Below are positions 1,284-43,225 of a DNA stretch of 64,000 nucleotides, piece after piece; positions within the stretch are counted from its first letter, which is position 1; each line of letters begins with the position of its first letter. The position numbers and the translations under genes are program-made. The notes below the pieces were generated by a model. The model saw nothing but the letters and a program-made list of their open reading frames with translations, was not told the DNA's origin and made no database searches. Where the stretch lies: the NCBI GenBank assembly GCA_051362555.1, contig CM120640.1, forward strand, positions 1,612,001 through 1,676,000, given 5' to 3'. Origin of the DNA: Lingula anatina. Taxonomy: Eukaryota; Animalia; Brachiopoda.

Positions 1284-4200
1284 GCGTTGTCAGAACATGG
1301 CGGTGCGCAACATTTGATCTACACTTTAAAGCGGCCGGTGTCACGAAACTGAGGTTCCGTATAATAAAAAGTATGCCCTCCATATAGTTATAATGGTTAG
1401 GGTTAGGGCGAGGCTTACCTGTACAAATGAACAGGAAGCTGAGTCTCTAGCATGAGAGACTCGCTGTCACGTTACGCAGGATATATGAGTGATATAGTCT
1501 AATCGCCATGCAAGTGCTATTTATGTTCAGACGTCTTCGACGACGACGACGACGACGATATCCAATGACCCATTGACAAATCAACAAGATGAGGACCGTT
1601 GAAGGTCTGTTATGTGACAGACAAGTACAGTATATTGTCCAAGTTAGCAGGTGGATCAACTGTAGCGTTTAGAGCACAGCTTTAAATCTTATCCCAAAGC
1701 TTTGCACATGGAAATATAAACATGTAGCCATTGCATGGGTTGGGGTGTTTCTTTGTAATTGTTTTAAACTACCACACGGATCATGCAGAAAAAACTGAAC
1801 TAACAACCGTCCTTGTCGTGGGAGCAACATGATTGTAAGAAGGCTCGCTAGGAAAGCAGAAGTATTGTTTAAAACTTCATGTCGTTTTATTTTACGTTTT
1901 CAATTTACTGGAAACTGAAGTTCAACAACAACCGAAGTAAACAAATCAGACACATCAACCGCTGGATTATTAAATTTTCCTGTTCACTTCTGACAATTTC
2001 TCCATAAAAATCAAATTACAAGGTTTTGATGTGGATCCACATACCAAGCCTTGATTGACAATAAAATGGAAAAAGACGTGGAACAAGAAGACGTGTTCAG
2101 ACAATGGGGTGCAAGTACTGGGACTTTAAGCAGGAGGATCATTTGGGCCAGTGCTAGTATGCGAAACAAATACGAAAAAAGTTTAGAAGAGGGGCAAATT
2201 GATTTGGAAACAAGTAAAATTCTATTTCTGGGAGATTCTGGTGTAGGAAAGACATCCCTGCAACGCTATTTCAGAGAAAAGAGATTCTTAAAAAATTGCA
2301 ATAGTACTCGAGGAAATGAAAAACACCACGTGGAAACTGCCGCTGTAACGGATACTTGGGAAGATGTTAAGGATCCTGAAAACGAACAGCAATATGCAGC
2401 TAGTTACGCAGCAGTAAAAATGACCGATAATTCTGCTTCTCAAGCAGTTGATCACGGATCATCGTTTGATCAACATTTTAAACTTGTATTTGGATTGCTT
2501 TGCGTGTGCGTTGCTTTTGCTTTCTTTCCCATTGGGATATGTTCATTGAAAATCATAGGATGCCTCTTTTCTACGCTATTTTTTTCTGGCAACCTGCCCA
2601 TGGGTATAAGATATGGCGAAGGCACAGCTCTCAGTGTATTTTACAGATATGCCTGTATCGAAATCCTATACGTTGACATCAATATGCAACAGAGAATAGA
2701 CAACCCAGACTTGTTATTGGAATTCCAACTTGCTGTTCTTTGTTGCGGGTTGGTGGTAGGGTTTGTGTTAGGATTTGGGTGTAGGGCAGGAACCTCATTG
2801 GTTTTCAGCTTTGTCTGCCTCAAAAGCCAAGGTAGTATTCTTGGATTTTTCTCAATTGTTTTTGATATGCTCTGTGAATGGTGCCTTGACTTTAAACATG
2901 CACCAACTGTATTCCTGATTGTTTGCCTTACTTTGTTTTCATGCCATGCGTTTCGTGCCAAATTGTACCAAGAGAAACGAAACATCAAGCAAATAATAAT
3001 GAACGTTTGTTTCCAAGTCATTGTTTCAAACATTGGGATTGCCCTCTTATACCAGTTTATTACAAAAGGAATATATGTAAAGATGGACAGCCACGAGCGA
3101 GTGGTACTTGCCATTTTAACGTGGACAGGGGCTGCTGTTGGCGTCTACATATGCAAAAACACGTCACCAAACCTGCTGCGGAGACGCTTTTACATTGGGT
3201 TGCCCGTTTACGTAATAGCAATAACCGCGTGCTCATATGTTTTCCATCGTCTTATATTATGGCAAATGGAAAAGAAATTAAATCATTATCTCATTATCTT
3301 CTTGGCTTGTTCTTCAAGTGCTATGCTAGAATACACAGCAATGATGGTTATTGGCCGGTCTCTGGCAAAAGTTTACGATATACCTTTCTATACACGAAGA
3401 GCACTTGGGTTTATTCTAGGTGTCGCAATGATATATTTAATGGACTGGACGGTCGCTATTCCTCCTGGAGAATTTATTTTAGATCAGTTGTTGTCTGTTG
3501 GTATTGTTCTTGCATTCGAGATTTGGGGCTTTTGGCAGGTGAAACAAGCAATGACAACGGGTATTGATTTAACCAAAATTAGACTGGCAAAATCAAGATA
3601 TGAGAATGGAGTTTCAGGCATGCGTATTAGGTTTGTGTTAATTGACTGTGGAGGGCAAGAAGAATATCATTATTTCCATCATTTATTCATACCAAAGGAC
3701 GCTGTATACATCATTGTATTTAATTTTGAAGAAGCAAAAAGACTCATAGATAGCAACAAACTCCGCACACAATCAAGACAGCTTCGCTATTGGTTGAACT
3801 GCGTGTTGGCACATATATGTTTGCCTGATGACGAAAATTACAAAAATCACAGGCCTATCTTCATTGTTGGAACACACAGGGACAGTGTTGATAAGGAGGT
3901 CAGACAAACGATTTCTCAGGAATTGACACATTTTTTTGAAAGAGAGGGTATCGACAAATACATTTCCTGGAATGAGGGTACCTTGATATTTGAAGTAGAA
4001 AATTCGGGACAGTGCAAGAGGGACGCAGGGGGAAAGCACCTCAGAAAGCAAGTGGCGGGAATCGCAGTTTTAAGGAAACAAAAAACCGAGATCAAATGGC
4101 TTAAATTTTCGAAAATGATGCCAGAGTTATCTCCAATAATAAAGATAACAGATCTGGCAGATGTTGTCATTAAGAATGGCATCGTTAAAACTGAAGATGA

Positions 4201-5135
4201 ATTTGAACATTTTGTAAAATACTTCATCGAGAGGGGCGAAATTCATTGTTGCAACAGTGATAGTAGCGATTGCCAAACGCAGTTTGTCGTCTTGCGTCAT
4301 GGGCAGTCCTGGTTTGTTGACTTATTTTTGGAAATTCTAAATATGATAGAAAGAAAAGAAAAGAAGATAGGCATCTTAAATGAAAATACCTTATATCAGG
4401 CGATAGACTGCAGAACTGAGATCCTTTCTGAGTGCCAATTTATGACGCTTGAAGAAGCGAAACATTTAAAACACATTTGCCGAAGACTTCTTGAAGAAAG
4501 TAACTTAATCGTTAAGGTCCCTGGCAGCCCGTGCTATCTCGTGCAATTTCAGTTGAAACACGCTAGCCAAGAAGATAGAGATGATCTTTGGAAATTTTTT
4601 CCAGGAAGAGAAATTACGTTTGGTTTAGACTTTGAAGAATTTGAACCCAATCCAATTTTCTGGAGGCTTACTTCTACTCTGCTAAAAATGAGCGCAGATA
4701 TTAACTTCAAGGAAAAGAACTTTCGGCAAACTGTGTTCTCTGATTTTGCCGTCTTTACAGAGCCATCCACAGGAATCAAGTACAAATGAAATCCATTATT
4801 ACACAAAACGTGATTTTATTTACTACAGGTGCAGACCCTTATTTATCCGCAGGTGCCATAGAACAACAAACTTTTCAGGTATTTGCCAATCTTCAGAAAC
4901 AATTGAGTTATTTATGCAAGACATCTTTCCCTGGGCAAAAATATTCCGTGGGACTAGTCTGTCAGCTACAAGACGAACACACTTGTCTGTGGGAAGAAAA
5001 GGTGAGCAAGTTCTCTCACTTGTATTAAGAATTGATGGTCTATAACTGAAGAAACAATTCATATATTTAATTGAGAAATCAAACGATTGGCTTTCCAAAA
5101 AAAAAATATGACCAAGTGCCATTGACAAAGTTATA

Positions 5136-7218: not shown

Positions 7219-8036
7219 CGATGTTTTCCAGAGTTTCATTATATGAATTCAGCTTTTGATGCTTTTCTTTTAGTATGAAAAAATAAGAAAAATTAATAAG
7301 ACAACATGCGCTTTCAGTTCAGTTGTTTTATCTGTAGGGTCACGTTCATATGTACCATCTGGGAGACAACAAATCTGGGCTCGAGTTATTTGATAATATT
7401 CCCAAGGGAATATCTGCTGTTTGTAAGTGTGGCGCTGCCCCAATGATGAAGATCTACCTGCACTCTGGCAAGGTAAGCAATGGGCATAATATTGTTGCAG
7501 CATAACTACTAAGTAGAAAAGTTCACAGACTTAAATGTGAAATTCAACATGATCGCGGAGTTTGATGGTTGTAAAACTAAAACAGAAGCACTTGCGTTTT
7601 TTTTTTTTTTTCAAAAATAAATCGTCGAAAGAAGATGAGAGAAAGAGGGGGGCTTTACAACTGTCATATTTTTGCTTTATATTAAACTTAAACTAAATTC
7701 ACATTTTATGGCTACGATAGTTTTAAACACATCAGGATTGATTATTACCTCTTTACAAAGTGTTACTGTCAGTTTGAATGAAATATTTCATATTTCTAAT
7801 TATTTTGCTTAAATTATTCAATATTAAGACAACTGCCTTGCCTTTTGTAATCAAATTCAAGGTTTGTAATTTTGTAGTTAACATAAAACAAAACAAAAAT
7901 GCAAGGTGTTTATCATACAATGGATGTTGGTCTGCAGTGCCCTCCATACATTTGTGGGGCGATTCAGAATAGGAGATCCGAGTATTAACTGATCTAAGGA
8001 TCAAATATGGCGGACCCTAAATGAAAGGTCTCCTGT

Positions 8037-9177: not shown

Positions 9178-11196
9178 CAATATCAGTCAAAAGTGACCGT
9201 AAACCTGCAGAGGGTAAATGCACATTTCATTTGCCCTCATCATTCAAATGTCTTATTTGAGGAAAATGGCGAAATGTACACGAATTAGCCAAACCTAGGA
9301 CAAATTGTGCGGTCATCAACTGCTGTAGCGACCACGTTGTTATCGTCAACCAGTCTCAATAACAAAATCAGCGGCTCTTTGCTGAGCATTTCTATTTCCT
9401 TTAACTTTAAAAAAGTACATGTACTGCATTAAAAGGAAACAAAATTATAAACCAAACGTCACTATTTTCATCATGTATTACAATCCAATATACATGTATT
9501 TCTTCCAATATTAGCAGTCATGTTACATAAGATGTTATTTTGTGTGAAATATTTTGTATTGTTATTTTAATGCCTCTTAAATAAGTAGTTATGTTTAAAT
9601 CAATTTCACCTGATGAAAAGTCTGCGTCCGGAGGTTATGAGGAACACATTCATTAATCACAACTAACACATTGCTGACTGTTAGATGTGGAGTGTATGTT
9701 ACCAAAATAGAAGTCCTTTGTATAGTTGACTTCTTCAAGTGTCAAGTGTGCAGCATCGAGGCCATGATCCTACAGTAAACTCATTTTTAAGTCGATCCGA
9801 TGAGTTAGTTATTGTTCACTTGTTGATTTGTTACAAAGGCAGTAAGGCTGTCAATGTGTGATGTTCTTTGTCTTGTCTACTTCTTTTCCTGCAATTTCCC
9901 ATAGAGCACACATTTTTCTATCCCATCTTTTCTGGTATGGCCCAGAGACTTAATTTGTATTTTCTACTAATCTTAACCTGTCTTAATCATATGGGACCAC
10001 GTTTTTTTATTTTTATTTATTTTTTTACTACCATTCTTGGTACACCTTGTATGCGTCGGCCTACAAAAATGATGATCAGTATATGTGACCGGTGTCATCA
10101 ATACCTTAGTTGTGCAGCTGACTTTATTTTGGAACTTTTAAACTGTTTATACATCTATGTATTGGTAGGTGGGTATTTGCATAGTTAACATGACATAATA
10201 TATATGTGAATAAATAAAACAAAAGAAAATAATGTTATAAAGGATTTAAAGAGGAAGAAGTAGCAAAAAATAAATTGGGGCTATCTGTTGATTCTTCAAT
10301 GATCGGATTCAGTCCCACCGCCGAAAGGCCGCTACACAGAGACCAAAAAATGAAATGAAAACATCTAAAAAGCAGTTCCCTCCAACAAACTCCTACATAG
10401 CCCTAGTCAATTCTCACCAGGACAATTAAGAAAACACATCTTTTAGCGGTGTAGTATATCCACGTTTTCTGCCACAGGTCTTTGTGGCAGTGTGAATAGG
10501 AAAACTGTTTGCACGACCCAGTTACAGTGTTGTGAATCACATTTGAACAGGTAGGAAGCGTAAACAGAAAAATGGCGTCCCACATTAGACTGGAAAGTGT
10601 TATTCTTTTTCAGAAAGTTAGCAACATTGATCCAGATTTTCAAGCCGCCTAAATAACGAGAGCGATAGCCAAAACATCGCTGTCATTTAATACTGTTCAT
10701 TTAAAGTTCACGTCTTCATCAACAATATTCGAGGACAAGTCGCCATTTAAACAAACAGCTGAGGTCAGTAATGGATCTTTGCATTCAGATCAGGATAGCT
10801 AAAACAGTGGATGAAACAGACACGTCTTGTGGTATGGTAGGAAGAATTGCCAGTAATAAACGGAACTGTTTAAGACTATTGTTTTTTAAACTTATCCCAA
10901 TATTTGCTGGATTCACAAAAATGTACATATGACAACTATTGAATGCCTCGTCGTTTTATCAGACTGGTTAAAACAACCCCACAGGTCATAAAAATCAATT
11001 TTTTAGCAAACAGTCGTCGTTGTTGTGGGAAAAAAACGCGGTTCTACGACAACCGTCCAGGAAAGAACTATATTTTTGTAAAAGTTAAACATTGTTTTAT
11101 TTTATGTCTTCAAACTAAACATATTACGAAAATCAAGTTACATTAATCGTTTGGTTCACGTTTGACAGCTTCACAATTCCGTAGTCATGTGCATCT

Positions 11197-14166
11197 ATGT
11201 ACCAATATTTGATCAACACCAGAATGGAAAACGAAAAAGAAGTACAGCAAGTCGACTTGTTCAGAACATGGGGTGCAAAGACTGGGACGTTAAGCAGGAG
11301 GATCATTGGGGCAAGTGCTGATCTGCGTCACAAATATGAAACGAGTATGCAAGAGGGGCAAATTTATTTGGAAACCAGTATAATATTATTCCTGGGAGAT
11401 TCTGGTGTAGGTAAGACATCCCTACAACGCTATTTCAGAGGAAAAGATTTCGTAAAAAGTCACAATAGTACTCGAGGAAATGAAAAGCATCACGTGGAAA
11501 CTGCTGCCGTAACGGAATCTTGGGAAGATGTGAAGGAACCTGAAAACGAACAGCAATATGCAGCTAGCTACGCTACAGTGCAAATGACTGACTATTCTGT
11601 TCCCCAAGCAGATGATCACGGATCATCGTTTGATCAACATGTCAAACTTGTATTTGGATTGCTATGCATATGTGTTGCTTTTGCTTTCTCTCCCATTGGG
11701 TTGTGTTCTTTGAAAATCATGGGGTGCCTCTTCTCTACTCTTTGGTTTTCTGGCAACCTGCCTATGGGTATCAGATATGGCGAAGGTACAGCTCTCAGTA
11801 TATTTTACAGGTATGCCTGTATCGAAATCCTATACGCTGGCACCAATATGCAGCATAGAATAGACAACCCAGACTTATTATTAGAATTCCAACTTGGTAT
11901 TCTTTGTTGTGGGTTGGTGATAGGGTTTGTGTTAGGATTTGGGTGTAGGGCAGGAACCTCATTGGTTTTCAGCTTTGTCTGCCTCAAAAGTCAAGGTAGT
12001 ATTCTTAACTTTTTCTCAATTATTTCGAATATGCTGTATGAATGGGTCCATGACTTCAAACATGCGTTAACTGTGTTTTTGATTGTCAGCCTTACATTGT
12101 TTTCATGGTATGCGTTTCATGCCAAATTATACCACGAGAAACGAAACATTAAGGAGATTTTAATTAAAGTTTGGTCCCAAGTCATTGTTTCAAATATCGC
12201 AATTGCCCTCTTTTTTCAGATTTATACACAAGAAAAGTATTTAAATATGTACAACCACGAGCGAGTGATACTTGCCATTTTAACATGGACAGGGGCTACT
12301 ATTGGCGTCCTCGTATGCAAATACGCGTCACCAAACCTTATGCTTAGTCGGTTTCATATGGGGTTGCCCGTTTACATTATAGCAATAATGGCGTGTTCTT
12401 ATGCTTTATATTGTCTCATTTTATGGTATATGGAAAAGTTTGTCCATCATTATATGATAATCTTCTTGGCTTGTTTTAGCGGTGCTATGTTAGAATACAC
12501 GTCAATGATGCTCATTGGACGGTCTCTTGCAAAAGTGTACGATTTGCCTTTCTATATACGAAGGGCACTGGGCTTTATTCTAGGTGTCGGAATGGTCTAT
12601 TTTATGAACTGGAAGGTCGCTATTCTTCCTGGAGAATTTATTTTAGATCAGTTGTTGTCTGTTGGTATTGTTGCTGCATTCGAGATGTGGGGCTTTTGGC
12701 AGGTGAAACAAGCAATGACAACGGGTATTGATTTAACCAAAATAAGACTGGCAAAAGCAAAACACGAGAATGGAATGCCAGGCATGCGTAAAAAGTTTGT
12801 GTTAATTGACTGTGGAGGCCAAGAAGAATACCATTATTTGCACCATTTATTCATACCAAAGGACGCTGTTTACATCATTGTTTTTAACTTCGAAGAAGCC
12901 AAAGGACTTCAAGACAGCAACGAACTGCGTATGCAATTCAGAAAGCTTCGCTATTGGTTAAACTGCGTGTTGGTCCATATATGTTTGCCTGATGACAAAA
13001 ATAATAAAAATGACAGACCTATCTTCATTGTTGGGACACACAGAGACAGTGTTGATAAGGAGGTCAGACAAACGATTTCTCAGGAACTGACAAGTTATTT
13101 TGAAAGAGAGGGTATCGATAAATATATTTCTTGGAATGGGGATACTCTGGTATTTGAAGTGGAGAATTCGGTACGGTGTAATAGGGACGAAGAGGGAAAA
13201 CATCTCAGGAAGCAAGTTGCTGAAGTTTCAAAAAGACAAAAAACTGAGATCAAATTTCTAAAATTTTCGAAAATCATGCCAATGTTGCCTCCAATAATAA
13301 CGCTCTCGGCATTGAAAGAAGCGGTCATGAAGGAAAACGTCGTTAAAGACGATAATGAATTTGAACATTTTCTTAAATACTTCAATGAGAGGGGGGATAT
13401 CCATTGTTGCGACGATGATAGTGGCGATTGTCAAACCAGATCTGTTGTCTTGCGTCATGGGCAGTCATGGTTTGTGGAGTTATTTTTGGAAATTCTAAAT
13501 ATGATAAAGAGAGACAAAAAAAAGAATGGTATCTTAAATGAAAGTACCGTGGATGAAGCGATAGAGCACAAAATCAATTTTCTTTCTGAGTGCCAATCGA
13601 TAAAACCCCAAGAAAAGAAACATTTAAAAGACATTTGTGAAAAACATCTCGAAGAAAATCACTTAATTGTAAAGGTCCCCGGCAGACCGTACTATCTTGT
13701 CCCATTTAAGTTGATAGACGCTACGCAAAAAGACAGAGATGACCTTTGGAAACATCTACCAGAAAAAGAAATTGTGTTTGGTTTTGACTTTGACGAATTA
13801 GAACCAAAGCCAATTTTCTGGAGACTTACTTCTACCCTGCTAAAAATGAGCGGTGACATAAATTTCACAGAAAAAAAGTTTCGGCAAACTGTGTACTCTG
13901 ATTTTGCTGTATTTGCAGAACCATCCACGGATTTCAAGTACAAACTTGAGATGAAATCAGTTATTTCACAGAACGTGATTAAATTTACTACACGTACAGA
14001 CCCTAAATTACCAGCAGGTGCCATAGAACAGCAAACTTTCGAGGTATTTGCGAATCTTCATAAACAATTGGATCATATATGCAATACATCTTTCCCTGGG
14101 CAGAAATATTCCGTGGGACTAGTCTGTCACCTACAAGACGAACACACTTGTTTGTGGGGGGAAGAG
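11197..14166 (+). CDS. Paralog 2 exon 1: Roc GTPase with inserted multi-pass TM bundle, plus COR (intact; alternative ATG at 11224)
   Basis: 990 open codons. G1 at 11395, G2 STRG at 11467, hydrophobic block 11641-12699, G3 DCGGQ at 12808, G4 GTHRD at 13033, COR motifs YLVP and FDELEPKPIFWRL. Donor GAG|gtgagc. Confidence 0.9.
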
Positions 14167-14386
14167 GTGAGCAAGTTTATAACTGAAATAAATATTCATA
14201 TATATATTATCGAATCAAGAAATCAAATGTTTAGCTGTGAAAAAGCGAGAAAGTGTCGTTGACGAAGTTATAGATTAAATATCAATCGCATCTAAAATTT
14301 ACCTTGGTCAGGTTAGGGTAACAATAGATAAAGTTGTATAAAAACAAATGTGCATATACATTAGGCTAAGGTTGTTCTATCTGTAG

Positions 14387-14521
14387 GGTCACGTTCACAT
14401 GTACCATCTGGGAGACAACAAATCTGGGTTCGAGTTATTTGATAATATTCCCAAGGGATTATCTGCTGTTTGTAAATGTGGCGCTGCCCCAAGGATGAAA
14501 ATCTACCTGTACTCTGGCAAG
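14387..14521 (+). CDS. Paralog 2 exon 2 (45-aa His/Cys linker)
   Basis: ctgtag|GGT...AAG|gtaagc; 135 nt, phase 0, conserved in all four copies. Confidence 0.88.
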
Positions 14522-15091
14522 GTAAGCAATTATCGTTTGCAATTCAATAAGGTAAATTTTCCTTTGTTTTTTGTCGATCTTGCGAACAGCACATTTCGAT
14601 GAAGGGCAATGACCATAGACCTAAATATATGTATGATGGCCAGTGTTAAAGTCAAGCTTGACGAATTTAAAGCCAACACATGTATTTGTATAAGTTCTTT
14701 AAATCGTAATTTAATGGCACTGAGAGAGTGGGGAAGAGAGAGCGTCATTCAGTTCGTTACACTTTACAGTTGTAATGCAAGATACAACATCTTTACAATA
14801 AAATACAAATTATATTTAAAAAAGAATTATTGAAATTGTTTTTTTCTTTGATTGAAGCAACATTTGAAAAACATTCGTTTGCTTCCTGTATTCATAATCC
14901 ATGTACCCTGTATTGCAATAAGGTGTAAATCCGACATGTGGCACAATATGTGGGACTGTGAATATTACAGACACTTCTAATTCCAGTAGGTGAACATTTT
15001 AACAGGGAGATGAGGTGATTGCTATACAAAACATGTTTGTCTGATGCCACAGAGCTCTTCATTTGTTTGTACAATGTTTATTTTATTTTAG

Positions 15092-15421
15092 AAACCCCAG
15101 GAAACTGAAAGACAATTCGAAAAGCTCAGAGAAAACTGGACAGAAATTGAACAAGACCTCGAACCTAAACCTCTCTTGTCCTACCTTTTTGCAAAGAAGG
15201 TTTTGGATGAAGATGATATGGATGTTATTCTGAATACACTTGAAAGGAAAAGCAGGTGCCATGAATTGCGGAAAAGACTGCGAAAATGTTCTCCAGAAAA
15301 GGAGCCTATGCGTCACTTGTGCACCATTCTGCGTGAAAAGCAGCCACATCTTGCTGATCTGTTGGAGTCATCCCCGGAAACTACAGATGACAGGGCGGTG
15401 AGAACGACTGATAATATCTGA
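15092..15421 (+). CDS. Paralog 2 exon 3: CARD-like death-fold domain
   Basis: ttttag|AAA; LRENWTEIEQDLEPKPLLSYLFAKKVL...HLADLL; in frame with exon 2, spliced product about 1144 aa. Confidence 0.85.
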   Translation, partial: KPQETERQFEKLRENWTEIEQDLEPKPLLSYLFAKKVLDEDDMDVILNTLERKSRCHELRKRLRKCSPEKEPMRHLCTILREKQPHLADLLESSPETTDDRAVRTTDNI

Positions 15422-16717
15422 GAAGAAAAACGCCTTTTTCAAAGGAAAAATATTCTGATATTATCAACTGGTTTCAATACCAAAATAAATATTCAATGGA
15501 TGTTAAATTCCTTTGACTCGAAGTGAAGAAGATGCATATATATTTGTGATAGATTGATAGCTTAAAAGGAAACGATAAAGAACTGACCTGAATGACACGT
15601 TGTATATCGGTCTTCATCGATCTTGAATAAATTTATGAAAACAACCTTTGTAAAATTATCAAAACAAGGTTTACTTCCGATGCTAACATCAGTGATATTA
15701 TTTCAGATGGGTGTGTAGCTTTATTACTGTTATTTCACTATGGAAAGGGGTGTTTTAAATAATCAAAACTTGGTGAAAGTAGGTCTCTTAGATGTAAAAT
15801 GTTTTAAACTGTGCATTGTGCAATAATTAGAGCAACCATATTGCGATATGTAATCATTAGAACAGTTTTAATTTTGACATTTTAATCCTTTGATAAAAAA
15901 CTGTAATCGCTCACCTGAACTGAGCAGATTCCAGTAATATACAGATGAGCTATATGCGTTACTTGTTTACCTGACTGTTATATTCACCAGAACATGATGA
16001 TGCTGAGGTTGCAATGATTGTTTAACTGTTATTTATAACTCCATTAGCAATGTGTTTTGCAGGATATGATCAGTTCTTTTTCGGCTAACAATGTCTAAAA
16101 GGGCATATTTTCACCCATCCACCCCTCCGCTCACCGAAGCATGATAATTTATTATATATTGTTTCTGACCATATAAAACTGTGTTTGTGTGATTTTACTT
16201 ATGAAAATTATTTAGTGGCACTAGCCAATACTTAAAAATAGTCTGGAACAGGTCTGTACGTGTATGATTCAGGTAGAAAACAGGGGTCCTATTTTTTATA
16301 CCTGCCTATTGTACCATAGCCAATGCACGTGCAGAGGCCAAAATGAAATAAAACTATTAGACCCTGTCCCCTTACTGCCTCTACAAGACCCCAGTATTTA
16401 CCGACCCGGGGACCTGTTTCTAGCTGAAACGTTCGCACATACGTGCAGCTCCAGCAACGTTTCCCTCAGTGTTTAAAGAAAAATGAAGTGACTTAAAACA
16501 ATCTTGTACATATTAACCGATTACAGTGACGTCATATTTGCTCCGTAACACTAGTCCCGCGGCCATGCTGGAGGGAATGAACGACGGGGAATCCTTACTT
16601 TTCACATGACGTCATCATTTTATGCGAACATTGGGTGTCCGCCATTTTCCTACACCAGGCGGGAGATACTATCGTGCTGAGTTTTTTCACTTTTTATCAC
16701 GTACACACAGCACAGTC

Positions 16718-18728: not shown

Positions 18729-19625
18729 TGGACCAAGATTATCAGAATTCCACACAGCTAACATATTTAGCACCGGGCCGTGGTGACTGCAAAAACTGAA
18801 TGGCTGAACAACTGAATCCAAGAAAAAAAAGGTTCAATTAGAAGCACCATTGCACTGTAAAAGGTATATTAAGACTAGCACACAAGAACTGAATACTGGT
18901 ATCACATCCAAAAAATGGGTAAATAGAAAAACACATCCGAACAATCTGTATAACTTTACAATAACTGACATCATATGTTAAAAAGATGTAAGGCATTGCA
19001 CAATAAAATGTCAGAATGGACCAAGATTATCAGAATTCCACACAGCTAACATATTTAGCACCGAGCCGTGGTGACTTCAAAAACTGAATGGCTGAACATA
19101 TGAATCCAAGAAAAAAAAGTTCAATTAGAAGCATCATTGCACTGTAATATGTACATTAAGACTAGCACACAAGAACTGAATACTGGTATCACATCCATAA
19201 AATGGGTTAACAGAAAAACACATCCGAGCAATCTATATAACTTTACAATTACTGACAGCATATGTTAAAAAGATGTAAGGCATTGCACAATAAAATGTCA
19301 GAATGGACCAAGATTATCAGAATTCCACACAGCTAACATATTTAGCACCGAGCCGTGGTGACTTCAAAAACTGAATGGCTGAACATATGAATCCAAGAAA
19401 AAAAAAGTTCAATTAGAAGCATCACTGCACTGTAATATGTACATTAAGACTAGCACACAAGAACTGAATACTGGTATCATATCCATAAAATGGGTAAATA
19501 GAAAAACACATCCCGAGCAATCTATATAACTTCACAATAACTGACAGCATTTGTTAAAAAGATGTAAAGTATTGCACAATAACATGTCAGAATGGACCAA
19601 GATTATCAGAATTCCACACAGCTAC
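18729..19625. repeat. ~288-bp tandem repeat (3 units plus a partial) between the two transposon genes
   Basis: tggaccaagattatcagaattccacacagcta recurs at 18729, 19017, 19304 and 19593. Confidence 0.9.
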
Positions 19626-26940: not shown

Positions 26941-28456
26941 ATGTGCTTTTATTTATAAATGATCGCATCACAGGTGAAAATTGTTATAAAGAGTAATTTT
27001 CATTCCAGATACCACAACTAACATGATTAGTGGTACAGAAAATACAAACTAGAGTGAAGATATCAATATTTTATACCATTTATTCACATTTATTGCAAGT
27101 ACCTCCTTAATTCCGACGTTTTCACATAGAGAAAGAAATGTCCATTCAGTTGAAAAGATGTCACCAAATATCACCAAATTTACAAATATTTAGCATTCGG
27201 GTGTGCTCGTTAAAGGTTACGTGTCTAAAAGCGTTTGTGTCTACCGCGTACTGTAATTATCTCCTGCCTCCAATAAGGGTAACAATTCTGTTTTGTGGGA
27301 TATTGTCCTATTCATACTAAAGAGCCCGGAGGGACTTGGTCCACATTATTAGGAGTTTGGTTCTCCTTTGCATTGCACACTCCAATTCATGTCACAGATG
27401 CTTAGTAGAGTTAATAATAGGGCTCAAAGATGGTTGCTCCATCCTCTAAATATTGGGTTTCTGCAACAAATTACTCAGTAGACGAGAGCTGTGTGCAAGT
27501 GCATTTCCACGATGACACCTGCAGTATCCCTGAAGTCACCTCTTGCAAATAGCATGAGATATTTGTTGAGAATGTTTCAGTGAATTCTCCCAATAACGTT
27601 CTTTTCCGGAAAGAACAATGTACTAAAACCATGGGCTTGGAATGCTCTCCAAACGTGGACTGACCAGACACCTCGGGCGATATTATCCTGCACACATCTT
27701 CCCAAAAAGCATTCTGCAACATGTCTACGGGCCCTAACTTGACCGTCAAAGGCATACAAGGAATACATACAGGTAGATTCACCAGCAAAACCAACTTGTT
27801 CCTAGTGGTGTTTGATCAAGTTCTGGTAGTTGTGGGTTCAGTGAACGTAACTGATACTTCATTCCGTCTGCAAGAGGGGACTTCGGGGTGATCCAGGCTT
27901 CATCATGACAGCACACTTGCACACAGTTCTGGTCTGGTGAGATTTGTTGCAGAAACCCAATGTTCTGAGGCTGCAGAAACCATGTTTGAGTCCTGATAAT
28001 AAACCTACTGATGAATTTAAGTGTGCGATCTAGAGGAGAACCAAACTCCAAATAGCCTGGACCAATTCCGCCAAGCTTTTTAGGAAACATAGGACAATAT
28101 CCCGCAAAACAGAACTGTTACCCTTGTTGAAGGCAGCGGCGCCGTCTACAGGAGCTAAATGTGTGTAAATTTGGTGACATTTGGTGGTATCCTTTTAATT
28201 AAATGAATATGTCTTTACCTCTGTGGAAATGACAATGGAACATCGGATTTTAGGGGGTACATGTAATAAATGTGAATAAATTGTATTACATATGGATATC
28301 TTAACCACTAGTTTGTATTTTCTGTATCACTAATCATGTAAGTTATGGTGTATGGAATGAAAATCACCATTCATAGTAACTAACTCCTGTGATGTGATCA
28401 TTTATAAATAAAAGCACATGAAACTGGGGGTGGGACAACTTTTTTGACCAATGTTG
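26941..28456 (-). mobile_element. Foldback derivative of a Tc1 element
   Basis: Diverged ~600-bp inverted arms. The spacer encodes the relics VGFAGES and DGQVRARR...SVHVWRAF (Tc1 catalytic region). The right end is followed by TA. Confidence 0.7.
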
Positions 28457-31192: not shown

Positions 31193-34100
31193 ATGGAAAA
31201 AGAAAAACACGAGGAAGACATGTTCAAGCGCTGGGGTGCAAGTACTGGGACTTTAAGCAGGAGGATCATTGGGGCAAGTGCTAGTATGCGAAACAAATAT
31301 GAAACGAGCATGCAGAAGGGGACAATTTATTTGGAAACGAGTAAAATATTATTTCTGGGAGATTCTGGTGTAGGAAAGACATCCCTGCAACGCTATTTCC
31401 GAGAAAAGGGTTTCTCGGAAAAGTATAATATCACTCGCGGAAATGAAAAGCACCACTTGGAAACTGCAGCCGTAACGGACACTTGGGAAGATGTTACTGA
31501 CCCTGAAAACGAACAGCAATATGCCGCTAGTTACGTAACAGTGAAAAAGACTGATTCTCCTTCAGAATCTCAAACAGCTGTAAATGGTGCATTGTTTGAT
31601 CAACATTTCAAACTTACAATTGGATTGCTATGCGTATGCGTTGCTTTTGCTCTTTTGCCCTTTGGGTTATGTTCTTTAAAAATCATAGGGTGCATCTTCT
31701 CTACTCTGTTTTTCCCTAATAATTTGCCGATGGGTATCAGATATGCTGAAGGTACAGCTCTCAGTATATTTTACAGATATGCTCTTATTGAAACCCTATA
31801 CGCTGACAGAAATATGCAACAGAGAATGAACAACCCTGACTTGTTCTTAGAATTCCAACTTGGTGTTCTTTGTTGCGGGTTGGTGGTAGGGTTTGTGTTA
31901 GGATTTGGGTGTAGGGCAGGAACCTCGATAGTATTTAGTTTGGTCTGCCTAAAAAGTGAAGGCAGTATGCTCAACTTTCTCCCAGTTGTTTTTGATATTC
32001 TCCGTGAATTTTGTCTTGACTTTAAACATGCATCAGCTGTAATTGTGATTGCCAGTCTAACGTTGTTTTTATGCCAAGCGTATTTGTACCACGGGAAAAT
32101 AAACATCAAGCAATTTTGTCTTCAGGTTATCGTTTCAAACTTTGCAACTGCCCTCATATATCAGATGATAAACGGAGAAAAATATCCGAGTTTATTCAAG
32201 GACGACCAAGCAACTGTTATCACACTGATTTGGTTTGGGGCTGCTGTTGGCATCTACGTATGCAAAAACACGTCACCAAGTCTGATGCGTAAACGGTTTT
32301 ATATTTGGTTGCCTGTTTATATGATAGCGATAAGTTTGTGTTCTTATTTCCTCTGTGGTCTCATTTTATGGTGTACGGAAAAAATTACCGCCATTATTTT
32401 ATTATCTTCTTGGCTTGTTCTTCAAGTGCTATGCTAGAATATACGGCAATGATGGTAATTGGCCGGCCTCTTGCAAAAGTTTATGATTTGCCTTTCTATG
32501 CACGAAGGACACTGGGCTTTATTTTAGGTGTCGGAATGGTTTATTTTATGAATTGGACGGTCGCTATTCCTCCTGGAGAATTTTTATTAGATCAGGTGTT
32601 GTCTGTTGGTATTGTTGTTGCATTCGAGTTGTGGGGCTTTTGGCGGGTGAAACAAGCAATGAAAATGGGAATCGATTTAACTAAAATAAGACTGGCAAAA
32701 TCAAAGTACGAGAATGGAGTATCAGGCATGCGTATTAAGTTTGTGTTAATTGATTGTGGAGGACAGGAAGAATATCATTATTTCCATCATTTATTCATAC
32801 CAAAGGACGCTGTATATATTATTGTATTTAACTTTGAAGAAGCTAAAGGACTTAAAGACGACAACGAACTGCGCGTACAATTCAAAAAACTTCGTTATTG
32901 GTTAAACTTCGTGTTAGCACATATATGTTTACCTGCTGGGAAAAATCGCAAACAGCACAAACCCATCTTCATTGTTGGGACGCACAGGGACAGTGTTGAC
33001 AAGGAGGTCAGATTCCTGATCTCTCAGGAATTGACACACTTTTTTGAAAGGGAAGGTATCGATCAATACATATCTTGGAATGAGGACACCCTGATATTTG
33101 AAGTGGAGAATTCGGGACAGTGCAAGAGGGACGAACAGGGAAAATATCTCAGGCAGGAAGTTGCGAAAGTTGCAGTTTTTAAAAGGCAAAAAACTGAGAT
33201 CAAATGGCTAAAATTTTCGAAAGTGATGCCAAGTTTGCCTCCAATCATAACGATCTCAGAATTGAAAGACTTTGTCATTGAGAAAGGTGTCGTTAAAGAC
33301 GAGAATGAGTTTGAAAATTTTGTTAAATATTTCAACGAGAGGGGGGATATTTATTGTTGCAACAGTGATAGCAGCGATTGTCAAACACGGTTTGTCGTCT
33401 TGCGTCACGGACAGTCATGGTTCGTAGACTTGTTTTTGGAAATACAAGACATGATGAAAAGAAAAGAAAAAAAGAAAGGTATCTTAAATGAAAATACCAT
33501 GAATCAGACAATACACTGTAAAATTGATAGCATGTCTAAGTGTCAATCGCTGACATGTGAAGACACAAAACATTTAAAAGACATTTGTGGAAAACTTCTT
33601 GAAGAAAGTAACTTAATCGTTAAGGTACCTAGCAGCCCGTACTATCTCGTGCCATTTCAGTTGGAAACCGCTAGCCAAGAAGACAAAGACAGTCTTTGGA
33701 AAACTTCGCCAGGCAAAGAAATTAGGTTTGGTTTGGACTTTGAAGAATTTGAACCAAAGCCAATATTTTGGAGGCTTACATCTACTGTGTTAAAAATGAG
33801 CGGAGACAAATATTTCAAGGAAAAAAAACTTTCAGCAAACTGTGTATTCTGATTTTGCTGTCTTTACAGAGCCATCCACAGGGATCAAGTATAAACTTGA
33901 GATGAAATCCATTATTTCACAAAACGTGATTTTGTTTACTACTAGTAGAGACTCTCGTTTACCTGAAGGTGCCATAGAACAACAAACTTACGAGATCTTC
34001 GCTAATCTTCACAAACAATTGAATTATATTTGCAATACATCTTTCCCTGGGCAGAAATATTCTGTGGGACTAGTCTGTCAGATACAAGGCGTACACACTT

Positions 34101-34978
34101 GCAACTGGCACGAAAAGGTGAGCAAGTCCTGTTACTTTTTGAGTTCATGGTCTATAATTGAGGAAACAACTCATATTTTTAATTGTACAATGAAATGTTT
34201 GTCTTTGAAAACATTAGTGTCATTGACATAGGTATATTTTAAAATTCAATCGGCTCTTTTCCTAATGCTGATTAGATTAGGATAACAATAGATAGAGTGA
34301 TATAGGAGGACATGTGTATTACTGTTGTTTTATCTGCAGGGTCAAGTTCATATGTGCCATCTGGGAGACAACAAATCTGGGTTTGAGTTATTTGATGAAA
34401 TTCCTAAGGGAACACCTGCCGTTTGTAACTGTGATGCAACCTTAAAGATGAAAATCTACGTGCACTTTGGCAAGGTAAGCAATTATGATTTACAATTCAA
34501 TTACATTAATATAATTTGTATTTTTGTCGATTCCGCAAGCAGCACATTTTGATAACAAACAGTAGTGAGTGGAAATTTTAACAAAAAGATGAGGTGATTG
34601 CTTTACAAAACATGTTGGTTTGCCATTACAATGAAAATCTCATTTTAGAAGCCCCAGGAAACTGAAAGACAATTCGAGAAGCTAAGAGAAAATTGGACAA
34701 AAATTGAAGAAGACCTCGAGCCTATAGATATCTTGTCCTACCTTTTTGAAAAGAAGGTTCTGGGTATAGATGACATGGATGTTATTCGAAATACACTCCA
34801 TAGGAAAGACAGGTGCTACGAATTACTCAAAAGTCTGCGTAAATGTTTTCCAGAAAAGGAGCCTATGCGTCACTTGTGCACCATTTTGCGTGAAAAGCGC
34901 CCACATCTCGCTGATCTGTTGAACCCATTTTCAGAAACTGCAGACGATAGGGCGGTGGGAACGGCTGACAATATCTGA
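31193..34978 (+). pseudogene. Roc-TM-COR-CARD paralog 3; exons 31193-34117, 34340-34474, 34649-34978; two 1-nt frameshifts (may be sequence errors)
   Basis: All motifs and splice sites are present. One A is missing in the run at 32379-32384 and one is extra in the run at 33821-33828 relative to the paralogs. Confidence 0.75.
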
Positions 34979-37147: not shown

Positions 37148-37500
37148 ATGGAAAAAAAAGCAGGAAGAAAACATGTTCAAGCGATGAGCTGAAAGTACTG
37201 GGACTTTAAGCAGGAGGATCATATTTGATCTACTGATCTATTAGTCCCTTATTGTGTAAACTTGCATCCTGTGTTTAACAACGATATCAAATTAATTTCA
37301 ACTCCAGTCATTTTACGTAGTTTACAGAAAATGACGAAAAACTGAAGGACAAAAATCTTAACCTTAAAAATCTGAACCTTAGACTTATCAATATTTCCCC
37401 CTATGCTGCTGACAATTGAAAGAATATAGTTTTACTTCACTTTCTATTTGAAGATCTTTGACCTTCAACATAATGGAAAAAGAGAAACAGGAAAAGTACT
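37148..37500 (+). pseudogene. Two 5' stubs of additional Roc-TM-COR-CARD copies
   Basis: 37148-37222 reads MEK...MFKR*AESTGTLSRRI. 37473-37500 reads atggaaaaagagaaacag and follows sequence similar to the paralog 3 upstream region. Confidence 0.75.
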
Positions 37501-39044
37501 AATAATTCTGAAAAAAAGTCCAATATATTTCTTTCAATATCAGTCAGTTTCAGCAGTAATATTATATGATCATAATATAATTTTTTGTGAAAGGACGTGT
37601 TGTTATTTTAATGCCTATAAATAAAAAAGTTATGTTGTAATCAATTAAACCGGATGAAAAGTCTCCGTCCATAGGTAAAGAGGAACACATTCATTTAGCA
37701 CAACTAACACATCGCTGACTGTTAGAGGTGAAGTGTATGCAACAAGAACAGGAGTCCTTAGGAACCGTTCCCCATTACTTCAGCCCATATACTACTACTG
37801 ATACGACCAACCCTCACCCGTACTAATCATATGGGACCCCGGACATCCAGTTTTATAACTACCATTCCTGTTTCACCTGGTATGTGTCGACTTGCAAGGA
37901 CACGATGATCAGTATATGTGACCGGTTTCATTAATATCTAATATCTTTGTTAACTTTATTTTTGAACTTTTAAACTCTCTCTCTCTATCTCTATCTCTCT
38001 CTGTGCATTTGTGTGTGTGTATGTGGGAGTGCAAATGTGCACTCGAGCGCGTGCGTGTACATAGTTAAAATATAATTATGACAAAATATATGTGAAAGAA
38101 TGAAATAAAGTAAAAAAAATAGCATTTAAAGAAGAAGAGAAGAAGCAAAAAATGGAGCCATGTTGGAACGTCAGTCCCACCACCGAGAGGCAGCTACACA
38201 GGGACCAAAATATGAAATGAAAACATAAAAAAGCTGTTCCCTCCAACAGGCTCCAACATAGCCCTAGCCCTTTATCGACAGACTTATTAACCAAATACTT
38301 CTCCTTTTGTATACAGGTTGTGCACTACAGGTCTTTGTGGCAGTGTGAATAGGGAAATGTTTGTATGACCCAGTAACATTATTGTGAATCAAATTGATTT
38401 TTGAACACGTAACAATGGAACAAAAACGGCGTCGAACAGCAGATTGAAGAGTGATTCTTTTCAGAAAGTTTGCGAGATTGATCTAGACTTCCAAGCTGCT
38501 TGAATAACAAGAGTAATAGCCAAAACATCACCGCCATTTAATAGCGTTCTTTTTTTCTTTGAGGCTCACGTCTCCGTCGACAATATTCAAGGACGTGACG
38601 GCATTTCAACAAACTGTTGAGGTCAGTAATGCATCTTTGCATTCAGATCAGGATAGCTAAAGACCGTTGATGAAACAGACACGTCTTGTGGTATTGGTGG
38701 AATTACAAGTAAGAAACGGAACGGTATAGGACTATTGTTTTTTTTAGTAATCTCATAGTCTGATGCATTTGACAGACAAATGTACACATGGCAACTATGG
38801 AAAGCCTTGTCGTTTTATCGGACTGATGACAACAACCCCACGGATCATATCTTAACTTTAACAAACAAACGACCATCGTTGTTGTGGGGAAAATACGATT
38901 CTACGACAACCCTCCAGGAAAGAACAATATTTTCCACATTGTTTTATTTTATGTCTTCAAACTAAACATATTGGAAAAACTCACATCACATCAATCGTTT
39001 AGGTCACGTTTGACAGCTTCACAATTCCGTAGTCGTGTGCATCT

Positions 39045-42011
39045 ATGTACCAATATTTGATTAACACCAGAATGGAGAACGTAAAAGAAGTACAAGTCGA
39101 CAAGTTCAGACCATGGGGAGCAAGTACTAGGACGTTAAGCAGGAGGATCATTAGGAGAAGTGCAGATCTGCGTCACAAATATGAATGGAGCATGCAAGAG
39201 GGGCAAATTGATTTGGAATCTTGTAAAATATTATTCCTGGGAGATTCTGGTGTAGGAAAGACATCCCTGCAACGCTATTTCAGAGGAAAAGATTTCGTAA
39301 AAAGTCACAATACTACTCGAGGAAATGAAAAGCACCACGTGGAAACTGCCGCCGTAACGGACACTTGGGAAGATGTTAAGGACCCTGAAAATGAACAGCA
39401 CTATGCAGCTATGTACCTTACAGTGCAAATGACTGATAATTCTGCTTCTCTAGCAGTTGATCACGGATCATCATTTGATCAACATGTCAAACTTGTATTT
39501 GGATTGCTATGCATATGTGTTGCTTTTGCTTTCGCTCCTGTTGGGTTATGTTCTTTGAAAATCATGGGGTGCCTCTTCTCTACACTTGTGTTTTCTGGCA
39601 ACCTGCCCATGGGTATCAGATATGGCGAAGGTGTAGCTCTCAGTATATTTTACAGATATGCCTGTATCGAATTTCTATACGCTGACAGCAATATGCAACA
39701 GAGAATAGACAACCCAGACTTGTTCTTAGAATTCCAACTTGGCGTTCTTTGTTGTGGGTTGGTGGTAGGGTTCGTGTTAGGATTTGGGTGTAGGGCGGGA
39801 ACCTTATTGGTCTTCAGCTTTGTCTGCCTCAAAAGTCAAGGTAGTATTCTTAACTTTTTCTCAATTATTTCAAATATGCTCTATGAATGGGTCCATGACT
39901 TTAATCATGCGCTAACTGTGTTTCTGATTGTCAGCCTTACATTGTTTTCATGCCATGTGTTTCATGCCAAATTATGCCACGAGAAACGAAACATTAAGCA
40001 AATTTTAATTAAAGTTTTGCCCCAAGTCACTGTCTCAAATATCGCAATCGCCCTCTTTTTTCAGATTTTAACACAAGAAAAGTATTTAAATATGTACAAC
40101 CACGAGCGATTGATACTTGCTATTTTAACATGGACAGGGGCTGCTGTTGGTGTCTATATATGCAAATACATGTCAACAAACCTAATGCGGAGGCGGTTTT
40201 ACATTGGATTGCTCATTTATATTATAGCAATTATCGTGTGTTCTTATGTTTTACATTGTCTCATTTTATGGTATGCGGAAAAGCATGTCCATCATTATAT
40301 GATTATCTTCTTGGCTTGTTTTAGCAGTGCTATGCTAGAGCACACGGCAATGATGCTCATTGGACGGTCTCTTGCAAAAGTGTACGATTTGCCTTTCTAT
40401 ATACGAAGGGCACTGGGCTTTGTTCTAGGTGTCGGACTGGTTTATTTAATGAACTGGAAGGTCGCTTTTCTTCCTGGAGAATATATTTTAGATCAGTTGT
40501 TGTCTGTTGGTATAGTTGCTGCATTCGAGGTGTGGGGCTTTTGGCAGATGAAACAAGCAATGACAACGGGTATTGATCTAACCAAAATAAGACTGGCAAA
40601 ATCAAATTATGAGAATGGAGTTTCAGGCATGCATGTTAAGTTTGTGTTATTTGACTGTGGAGGACAAGAAGAATATCATTATTTCCATCATTTATTCATG
40701 CCAAAGAACGCAGTTTACATCATTGTATTTAACTTTGAAGAAGCCAAAAGACTTAAAGACGACAACGAACTGCGCGTGCAATTCAAAAAGCTTCGCTATT
40801 GGTTAAACTGCGTGTTGGCTCATATGTCTTTGCCTGAAACTAAAAAAAATCACAAACCTATCTTCATTGTTGGGACACACAGGGACAGTGTGGATAAGGA
40901 GATCAGACAAACGATTTCCAAGAAATTGACACAATTTTTTAAAACAGAAGGTCTCGACAAATACATTTCCTGGAATGAGGGTTCTCTGATATTTGAAGTA
41001 GAGAATTCGGGACAGTGCAAGAGGGACGTAGAAGGAAAAAGTCTCAGGGAGCAAATTGCAAGAATTGCTGTTTTAGAAACGCAAAAAGTCCAGATCAAAT
41101 GGCTTAAATTTTCAAAAATCATGCCAGAGTTATCTCCAATAATAAAGAAAACAGATCTGGCAGACGTTGTCATTAAGAACGGCGTCGTTAAATCTGAGGA
41201 CGAATTTGAACATTTTGTTGAATATTTCAACAAAAGGGGAGATATTTATTGTAACGATAATGCATGTGGCGATTGTCGAACACGGTTTGTCGTTTTGCGT
41301 CATGGACAGTCATGGTTTGTTGATTTGTTTTTGGAAATTCTAAAAATGATAGAGAGAAAAGAAAAGAAGATAGGGATCTTAAGTGAAAGTACTATGGATC
41401 AGGCATTAAACCGTAGAATCGAGACCCTTTCTAAGTGCCAATCACTGGCATTTAAAGAAACAAAACATTTAAAAAACATTTGTGGTAAACTTCTTGAAGA
41501 AAGTCAATTAATCGTTAAGGTCCCTGGCAGCCCGTACTATCTCGTGCCATCTCAGTTGAAAAACGCTAGCCAAGAAGACAGAGAAAACCTCTGGAATCTA
41601 TCGCAAGACAAAGAAATTACGTTTGGTTTGGACTTTGAAGAATTTGAACCAAAGCCAATTTTCTGGAGGCTTACTTCTACTCTGCTTAAAATGAGCGGTG
41701 ACAAAAATTTCACGGAAAGAAAGTTTCGGCAAACTGTGTACTCTGATTTTGCTGTCTCTACAGAGCCATCCACAGGAATCAAGTATAAACTTGAGATAAA
41801 ATCCATTATTACACAAAACGTGATTTTGTTTACTACACGCACAGACCCTTATTTACCAGCAGGTGCCATAGAACAGCAAACTTTTGAGGTCTTCGCTAAG
41901 CTTCACAAACAATTGCATCATATATGCAATACATCTTTCCCTGGGCAGAAATATTCCGTGGGTCTGGTCTGTCAGGAACAAGAGGAACACACTTGTTTGT
42001 GGTGGGAAGAG
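39045..42011 (+). CDS. Paralog 4 exon 1: Roc GTPase with inserted TM bundle, plus COR (intact)
   Basis: 989 open codons with the same motifs as paralog 2; donor GAG|gtgagc. Confidence 0.9.
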
Positions 42012-42256
42012 GTGAGCAGGTTCTGTTACCTGTATTAACAGTTCATGGTTTATAATTGAAATAATTATTTATATATTTAACCGAATCAAGAAATCAAATG
42101 CTTAACTGTGAAAAAGCGAGAAAGTGTCGTTGACGAAGTTATAGATTAAATATCAATCGCATCTAAACTTTACCTTGGTCAAGTTAGGGTAACAATAGAT
42201 AAAGTAATATAAAACAAATGTGCATGTGTATTAGGCAATGGTTGTTTTATATGTAG

Positions 42257-42391
42257 GATCACGTTCATATGTACCATCTGGGAGACCACAAATCTGGGTT
42301 CGAGTTATTTGATAATATTCCCAAGGGAATATCTGCTGTTTGTAAATGTGGCGCAGCCCCAAAGATGAAAATCTACCTGTACACTGGCAAG
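42257..42391 (+). CDS. Paralog 4 exon 2 (45-aa linker)
   Basis: atgtag|GAT...AAG|gtaagt. Confidence 0.88.
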
Positions 42392-42916
42392 GTAAGTAAT
42401 TTTCGTTTGCAATTCAATAAGATAAATTTTCCTTTGTATTTTTTCCGATCTGGCGAGCAGCACATTTTGATAAAATGACAATTACCATAGGCCTGAATAT
42501 ATGCATGATGACCCGCGTTAAAGCCATGTTTGACGAATTTAAATCCAACACATGTATTTGTGTGAGTTCTTTAAATCGTAATTTAATGGCACTGAGAGAG
42601 AGGGGGCAGGGAGAGCGTTATTCTGTTCGTTTCACTATACAGTTTTAATGCAAGATACAGCCACTTTACAATAAAAAATACAAGTTGTATTTTACAAAAA
42701 TAATTCATTTTAAATTGTTTTTTTCCTTTGGTTGGTCCAATAATTAAAAAGCATTCGTTGCCTTCTGTATACATAGTCCATGTACCCTGTATTGCAATAA
42801 GGTGTAAATCCGACCTGTGGCACAATATGTTTGACTTGACACAGACACTTCTAATACCAGTATGTCTGATGCCACTGAGCCCTTCATTTGTTTGTGCAAT
42901 GTTAATTTCATTTAAG

Positions 42917-43225
42917 GTACCCCAGGAAACCGAAAGACAGTTCGAAAAGCTCAGAGAAAATTGGACAAAAATTGAAGAAGACCTCGAACCTAAATCTCTC
43001 TTGTCCTACCTTTTTGAAAAGAAGGTTCTGGATGAAGATGATACGATTGTTATTCGGAATATACTTGAAAGGAAAGACAGGTGCCTTGAATTGCTAATTA
43101 GACTGTATAAATGTTCTCCAGAAAAGGAGCCTATGCGTCACTTGTGCACCATTCTGCGTGAAAAGTGCTCAAATCTGGCTGATCTGTTGGAGGGAGATGA
43201 CAGGGCAGTGAGAAAAATATTCTGA
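42917..43225 (+). CDS. Paralog 4 exon 3: CARD-like domain (alternative in-frame acceptor at 42926)
   Basis: LRENWTKIEEDLEPKSLLSYLFEKKVL...NLADLL; acceptor is aag|GTA or cag|GAA. Confidence 0.82.
   Translation, partial: VPQETERQFEKLRENWTKIEEDLEPKSLLSYLFEKKVLDEDDTIVIRNILERKDRCLELLIRLYKCSPEKEPMRHLCTILREKCSNLADLLEGDDRAVRKIF

Follow-up and report, generated by a model that had tools for sequence, protein, structure and literature searches.

A tandem cluster of Roco genes in Lingula anatina with a predicted membrane bundle inside the Roc domain and a likely CARD exon

In a 64,000-nucleotide stretch of the genome of the brachiopod Lingula anatina (GCA_051362555.1, contig CM120640.1, positions 1,612,001 to 1,676,000 of the forward strand; hereafter the window, whose own coordinates are used throughout), we identified four tandem genes encoding Roco proteins, in which the Roc domain is interrupted by a long hydrophobic stretch predicted to form a multi-pass membrane bundle, and in which the COR domain is followed by an exon for a CARD. 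These genes may belong to a so far overlooked family of membrane-bound switches that serve immunity or cell death. Our preferred reading, to which we give a probability slightly below one half (roughly 0.45), is that the products would act as membrane-bound nucleotide switches, in which association driven by COR clusters the C-terminal CARDs and recruits a CARD-bearing caspase or a CARD adaptor in defence or cell death.

Six-frame translation and self-comparison of the window placed the four copies (A to D) on the + strand, colinear and of one gene type. Every copy consists of three exons separated by phase-0 introns (exon 1 about 2.94 kilobases, exon 2 135 bases, exon 3 309-330 bases), with GT at all eight donors and AG at all eight acceptors. 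The encoded order is the same in each: a first Roc half with motifs G1 and G2, a hydrophobic insert of about 390 residues, a second Roc half with motifs G3 to G5, COR, a cysteine/histidine (Cys/His) tail, and CARD. This arrangement had been proposed, as four colinear three-exon paralogs, in an earlier sequence-only reading of the same DNA, and is confirmed. The features are as follows.

2066-5001, + strand: copy A exon 1, with the Roc N-half, hydrophobic insert, Roc C-half and COR; 7-base deletion near 4785
7338-7472, + strand: copy A exon 2, encoding the Cys/His tail of COR in 45 codons
8848-9177, + strand: copy A exon 3, CARD; 54% to copy B, the greatest divergence among the four
11224-14166, + strand: copy B exon 1, open
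14387-14521, + strand: copy B exon 2
15092-15421, + strand: copy B exon 3, CARD; closest solved structure by sequence is the CED-4 CARD (E 8.9e-4)
31193-34117, + strand: copy C exon 1, with two single-base shifts
34340-34474, + strand: copy C exon 2
34649-34978, + strand: copy C exon 3, CARD
37149-37223, + strand: exon-1 start preserved as a stub that soon meets a stop codon
39072-42011, + strand: copy D exon 1, open, 980 codons
39240-39317, + strand: copy D Roc N-half, with P-loop G1 at 39240-39263 and the switch-I threonine at 39315-39317
39474-40565, + strand: copy D insert, hydrophobic and helical, spanning about residues 135-498; predicted multi-pass, no Pfam match
40653-41009, + strand: copy D Roc C-half, with G3 at 40653-40667, G4 at 40872-40886 and G5 at 40998-41009
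41085-42011, + strand: copy D COR, start approximate
42257-42391, + strand: copy D exon 2
42917-43225, + strand: copy D exon 3, CARD, with an AAG acceptor

The spliced models of copies B and D are open without internal stops, over 1135 and 1127 residues, respectively. The frame of copy A is broken by its deletion, which lies outside any run of A. Copy C carries a -1 shift near 32383 and a +1 shift near 33828, with a net change of zero; because both sit in runs of A, they may be assembly errors, and copy C may be intact. The sequence-only reading had counted two intact copies of about 1140 residues, two disrupted ones, stubs of more, and a birth-and-death cluster; the intact pair, the duplication and the lesion in copy A hold, the disruption of copy C is doubtful, and a single coding stub was found, no further exon-1 or exon-3 copies being detected in the window by tblastn. 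Copy C is 98% identical over 329 residues to a public Lingula anatina model (XP_023932953.1, here P0002). That model shifts frame near window position 32179, beside another run of A, where the reading frame of the window is open (31193-32289 compared), so homopolymer errors may hide this Roco family from annotation. An origin of the four genes from a retrotransposon or a contaminant was rejected, since they are spliced, of animal type, and matched in Lingula.

As a separate observation, units B (10020-15657) and D (37851-43436) form a 5.7-kilobase duplicate with 82% identity, in which synonymous distances rise from 0.16-0.17 for the N-terminal half to 0.34-0.47 for the second Roc half and COR; this mosaic suggests gene conversion between copies.

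The Pfam Roc profile matched exon 1 of copies A, B and D with 52-62 bits (cut-off 27) in two stretches, about residues 50-92 and 492-607, and exceeded its cut-off in both open reading frame pieces of copy C. All five G motifs, including the G2 threonine, were located in copy D, and the spacing from G1 to G3 is 461 residues. The ten best Atlas matches having a family all belong to the Roc clan. For COR, the Pfam COR-A profile yielded a single weak match below the cut-off (copy C, E 1e-4); support comes from LRRK2, the Parkinson's disease protein, which aligns over residues 526-831 of copy D (E 8.9e-6), and from a COR profile of 120 relatives, which matched copy D at E 1.4e-11 and copy B at E 1.4e-13, with 0.11 for a reversed control. 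The Cys/His stretch that had earlier been taken for a linker is encoded by exon 2 together with the end of exon 1; the stretch itself is present, and because a similar one, compared by eye, terminates relatives without CARD, it is better read as the tail of COR.

Scanned with Pfam at E up to 1, exons 1 and 3 gave no leucine-rich repeat (LRR), ankyrin or kinase match, as the first inspection had found for LRR and kinase. NB-ARC and NACHT were not matched by Pfam in the proteins of the window, nor was the KAP nucleoside triphosphatase (NTPase) at E up to 1, the NTPase domain being Roc. Membership in the LRRK, DAPK, NLR or KAP families was rejected, as the domains that define them (LRR/ankyrin/kinase, NB-ARC/NACHT and KAP, respectively) were not matched. 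By membership, the four genes appear to belong to the Roco family.

The insert occupies the interval between the switch-I strand and G3. Hydrophobic residues make up 54-55% of it and charged residues 12-13%, compared with 21-30% and 30-41%, respectively, in the soluble inserts that two other Rocos (P0126 and P0127) carry at this Roc site. Kyte-Doolittle hydropathy predicted 7-8 membrane segments at a threshold of at least 1.6 and 8-11 at one of at least 1.4, and an approximate insertion-energy scale predicted 5-7. We therefore describe the insert as a predicted multi-pass membrane bundle whose number of helices varies with the scale. Its loops are short (2-22 residues), the sequons listed for copy D all lie outside it, no internal repeats were found within it, and it had no Pfam match at E up to 10 except one at 7.3. 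A single-sequence AlphaFold model of copy D exon 1 was poor (predicted local distance difference test, pLDDT, 38.7) and contained about a dozen helices. With the insert alone as query, one relative was retrieved among 1.84 billion representatives, namely P0002 from Lingula itself, and no match in the Atlas; insert-only searching overlooked the crinoid inserts described below, and these blanks are no proof of absence.

Comparison among the Lingula copies gave ratios of nonsynonymous to synonymous substitution rates (dN/dS) of 0.17-0.63 over all exon-1 regions, 0.41-0.70 for the CARD exon and 0.51-0.91 for the short exon 2. The copies are under purifying selection. Within exon 1, the insert gave 0.36-0.44 in four long comparisons and 0.63 in one piece of 101 codons, values similar to those of Roc and COR. 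Such constraint, without hypervariable parts in Lingula, together with short loops and the lack of an ectodomain, would also fit a bundle that is a mere anchor on an organelle membrane for trafficking or remodelling, with the CARD as a scaffold that has no death or immune output. Rocos have been linked to vesicle trafficking (PMC4104024), and the insertion site tolerates unrelated soluble inserts, as in P0126 and P0127. One or two helices would suffice for an anchor, however, compared with the about 390 residues present, and tandem multiplication with many coral-type paralogs would be unusual for a housekeeping anchor; we consider this explanation unlikely.

To place the Lingula genes among other sequences, exon 1 and its parts were used as queries. 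The search with the whole exon gave one match among 7991 candidates, P0001, which carries a hydrophobic insert at the same Roc site. P0001 as query yielded 184 matches among 7998 candidates, a family that we call coral-type; three among the matches listed are from the stony corals Orbicella, Oculina and Stylophora. Among the 120 coral-type matches listed, 116 could be parsed, with medians of 385 residues for the distance from G1 to G3 and of 5 for the number of strong hydrophobic segments (range 1-8); many look like single-exon open reading frames, whose C-termini cannot be judged. In four coral-type members (P0060, P0068, P0074 and P0090) the G1 to G3 distance is only 126-312 residues, so the insert can apparently shrink. 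A search with the second Roc half and COR gave seven matches among 5519 candidates: three from the crinoid Anneissia japonica and two others with hydrophobic inserts, and two with soluble inserts. Two more crinoid sequences were added, giving five crinoid split-Roc proteins. The split Roc-COR core thus appears to be a wider family in crinoids and corals, mostly without CARD.

Across a 48-row alignment, G1, the switch-I threonine, the aspartate and glycine of G3, and G5 are nearly invariant. The acidic residue of G4 is aspartate in the Lingula copies, glutamate in 8 rows, including the crinoids, and glycine in 30 of the 48 rows; nucleotide specificity may differ in the coral-type group.

The inserts themselves are less easily compared. 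Those of Lingula and the crinoids align in order, and share glycine-rich helices with buried arginine and glycine motifs. Pairwise scores between them were weak (best blastp E 1.3e-4, hhalign E 0.052, local z 0.6-4.1). A profile of the five crinoid inserts, run with composition correction off and with matched decoys, the only setting in which the link was clear, scored 33.7 bits on copy B and 29.0 bits on copy D, above all 300 shuffles (maximum 23.0) and all 113 coral inserts (maximum 18.9); on copy A it scored 20.9 bits, within the range of the shuffles. The Lingula and crinoid inserts are probably homologous. Between the coral insert and either of them, no homology was detected by hidden Markov models, hhalign or pairwise scores. 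In a tree of the second Roc half and COR with 24 chosen rows, the membrane-split proteins did not fall on one side of a branch and required two changes, and a single origin was found in 0% of 200 bootstrap trees, in which long branches meet and one row is incomplete. On these comparisons, the split Roc may go back to a single old family or to several independent insertions at a permissive site.

The composition of these inserts bears on whether the bundle could itself be the output, acting as a pore, ion leak or transporter under GTP control, to which Lingula would have added the CARD late as an accessory. The glycine-rich helices with buried arginine and glycine motifs common to Lingula and crinoids would suit such a role, as would crinoid and coral members that stop at the end of the Cys/His tail and carry no further effector domain. 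A precedent is the bacterial transmembrane P-loop NTPase Tmn, which exports Mg2+ in phage defence (PMC13001434). The coral-type inserts, however, have a mean identity of only 0.29, compared with 0.62-0.71 in Roc and COR, which is low for a conserved transport path, and the insert has almost no Pfam match even at permissive E values. We hold a bundle that acts as the output to be improbable. The strong variability of the coral-type inserts would fit a sensor, the role that the sequence-only reading gave to the bundle and that our preferred reading also assumes.

Whether a Roc domain divided in this way could still fold was examined with a coral relative, P0027. Its model, built with 109 rows, reached a pLDDT of 73 and a predicted template modelling score of 0.71, with about nine helices in the insert. 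Foldseek gave LRRK1, LRRK2 and bacterial Roc-COR as best matches; the model aligned with LRRK2 Roc-COR over 429 residues (VIA, Z 23.6, root-mean-square deviation 3.9), and whole small GTPases aligned over residues about 34-567, for example 5xc5 with 165 of 167 residues (root-mean-square deviation 3.1, Z 17.7). Since small GTPases and LRRK2 align across both halves, the model suggests that a Roc split this way can reassemble, both halves forming one G domain with COR, an outcome that likeness to solved Rocos favours. The fold-search matches were filled by Roc-COR proteins and small GTPases, and bear on the Roc-COR core of the model far more than on the bundle.

Exon 3 was assigned to CARD (PF00619) in all four copies, with 24.6 bits in A, 37.2 in B, 35.0 in C and 24.6 in D; copies A and D thus pass the cut-off of 23.9 only narrowly. 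The CED-4 match of copy B is weak, and copy A gave only an insignificant match to MDA5 (E 0.31). Taken with the COR evidence above, the CARD predicted from sequence alone was recovered in every copy, and COR through LRRK2 and the profile of relatives and not through Pfam.

The joining of this exon to the Roco exons is indicated by splice signals. In all four copies, the frame stays open through exon 2 up to a GTAAG donor that keeps it in phase, and exon 3 begins at an in-frame acceptor with 9-13 pyrimidines per 17 bases and has no usable start. The codon preceding exon 3 is the acceptor TAG in three of the four copies, and the first methionine is at residue 43 or later, or absent; the CARD exon would therefore require an upstream exon. 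RNA from four of nine runs of the same species was aligned to copies C and D (6% of each run was read, and three reads were needed for a joint to be listed). The joint of exons 1 and 2 was covered by 3 reads in one run, at the predicted GT..AG intron. In exon 2, the reads differ from copy D at no fewer than seven other positions and agree with copies A, B and C in having A at 42287; the joint-spanning reads therefore come from a sister copy or allele, and support the structure of the family rather than copy D itself. The exon joining proposed by the sequence-only reading is accordingly seen in RNA for exons 1 and 2, whereas the joint of exons 2 and 3 was not listed in the four runs on copies C and D, at low depth and with the three-read threshold. 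The Roco-CARD fusion is likely, and rests on the genomic splice signals.

The missing joint could also mean that the CARD exon is never or rarely joined, or that the cluster is largely decaying, so that the working product would be a membrane Roco without CARD, as in crinoids and corals. The lack of CARD in the crinoid and coral-type relatives scanned, the broken copy A, the stub, and an RNA depth on the coding exons of C and D that stayed below 2 in two runs and close to 0 in two more are in line with this. Against it stand the in-frame splice signals and the missing start of exon 3 in every copy, a dN/dS below 1 in the CARD exon, and reads on the CARD exon of copy C and the 3' end of copy D, and we regard a product without CARD as distinctly unlikely.

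Our preferred reading, a membrane-bound switch with CARD output, would work as follows. The insert is predicted to be placed in the hairpin between the two switch regions, and both Roc halves are predicted to refold into one cytosolic G domain, for which an even number of membrane crossings would be required. An alteration of the bundle by membrane state, a lipid or a membrane partner, a large ectodomain being absent, might be passed directly to the switch regions. Whether GTP favours the Roco dimer or the monomer is disputed. By analogy with other Rocos, the nucleotide state would alter self-association through COR, as in the COR dimers and the dimer-switch model described for the family (PMC4104024). 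CARDs gathered on the membrane could then recruit a CARD partner, for which the caspase-Y paralogs of Lingula or CRADD would be candidates. In AP-GTPase/COR systems, the variable effector position lies C-terminal of COR (PMC8195603); the CARD sits there in the Lingula proteins, which supports this reading. Lingula has also been reported to be without APAF-1 and caspase-2 and to have six caspase-Y paralogs that bear a CARD (10.1101/2023.12.11.571055).

Several results weigh against this reading. The same caspase study puts forward CRADD as the activator (10.1101/2023.12.11.571055), so no activator gap needs to be filled. A CARD was found in none of 10 coral-type proteins and none of the 7 proteins from the search with the second Roc half and COR (the three crinoid proteins among them), and the split Roc-COR core therefore appears to work without one. 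In Lingula, the identity of the insert is 0.77-0.86, with 0.67-0.89 elsewhere; because it is no more variable than Roc-COR, a fast-changing ligand sensor is disfavoured in this species. The confident structural model is that of a coral protein whose insert has no detectable homology to that of the window, whose own model is poor. To these is added the exon 2-3 joint that was not listed. A broader proposal is somewhat unlikely: that the proteins would be an undescribed animal receptor class with a bundle wired into the Roco switch region, old enough to be common to brachiopods and echinoderms and with a parallel in corals, to which Lingula added a CARD, obtaining a GTP-driven, membrane-bound activator of CARD caspases after the loss of Apaf-1.

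To our knowledge, the Roco proteins characterised so far are soluble and depend on partners to reach membranes. The Lingula copies resemble LRRK1/2, MFHAS1, DAPK1 and the Chlorobium tepidum Roco in having Roc followed by COR and the G motifs, in the LRRK2 sequence match and in the fold match of the coral relative; they differ in lacking LRR, ankyrin and kinase domains, in a Roc split by about 390 residues and in having almost nothing N-terminal of Roc. Roc-COR with death-fold domains in expanded invertebrate families has precedents in Trichoplax Rocos with CARD or death domains (PMC4104024), in mollusc (Aplysia) Roco-TIR/Death proteins (PMC9334734) and in a sponge-dominated Atlas cluster with Roc in 40%, COR-A in 48% and CARD in 26%; unlike the Lingula copies, the Trichoplax and mollusc proteins are not credited with a membrane insert in Roc in the available accounts. 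Because Roc-COR with CARD was already described in Trichoplax, the predicted membrane insert, and not the CARD, would be the new element. The idea that the architecture is undescribed is thus retained for the insert alone: no description of a Roc split by membrane helices was found in the open literature, searched mainly at the level of titles and abstracts.

Brown-algal Rocos are clustered and expanded, have been proposed as immune receptors, carry insertions in Roc and in some cases have a C-terminal transmembrane-like domain (PMC11378527, PMC4104024); they differ in their LRR sensors, in a membrane-like part that is C-terminal and not within Roc, and in having no CARD. Apaf-1, CED-4 and NLR proteins combine a nucleotide switch with CARD, and the CARD of copy B weakly matches that of CED-4; the Lingula copies differ from them as GTPases rather than STAND ATPases, with a C-terminal CARD, a predicted integral membrane part and neither WD40 nor LRR. 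KAP P-loop NTPases (Kidins220, PifA) also have membrane segments inside the NTPase domain, with fewer helices, and some act in defence; they are another class of NTPase and have no COR or CARD. Further counterparts are Anneissia japonica XP_033114595.1, XP_033117377.1 and XP_033114261.1 and coral XP_020612349.1, XP_078367729.1 and XP_022794761.1, in which a hydrophobic insert interrupts Roc at this very site, and COR and a Cys/His tail follow; they have no CARD, are about 20-22% identical, and are named "uncharacterized" by NCBI.

If real, a Roco with a bundle between its switch regions would show how a membrane could drive Roc-COR directly, and would offer a small system, free of a kinase, in which to ask how the output of a Roco depends on its nucleotide state and on association through COR. 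In animals reported to be without Apaf-1, it would also be a concrete candidate, open to testing, for the activation of CARD-caspases. Beyond Lingula, it draws attention to a large family in corals that lacks annotation and whose membrane inserts vary strongly.

Elsewhere, the window contains mobile elements and repeats. Between copies B and C lies a transposon with a THAP piece and a DDE_Tnp_4 transposase (16610-18585, + strand), facing an open reading frame with YqaJ exonuclease and PHD domains (19625-22045, - strand), a layout that we take to recall PIF/Harbinger-related ISL2EU elements. Two long imperfect inverted repeats, or fold-back elements, follow at 24496-25456 and 26937-28423. The segment 35952-37214 consists of repeat fragments with high RNA depth derived from other loci, where 58-81% of the reads continue into unlike sequence. 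At 52610-55291 (+ strand), a Gag-like open reading frame overlaps one for a reverse transcriptase (RVT_1, E 3e-22), presumably a piece of a DIRS-type retrotransposon. On either side of this retroelement region, a 1.17-kilobase inverted duplicate with 93% identity is found at 47940-49099 and 59182-60333.

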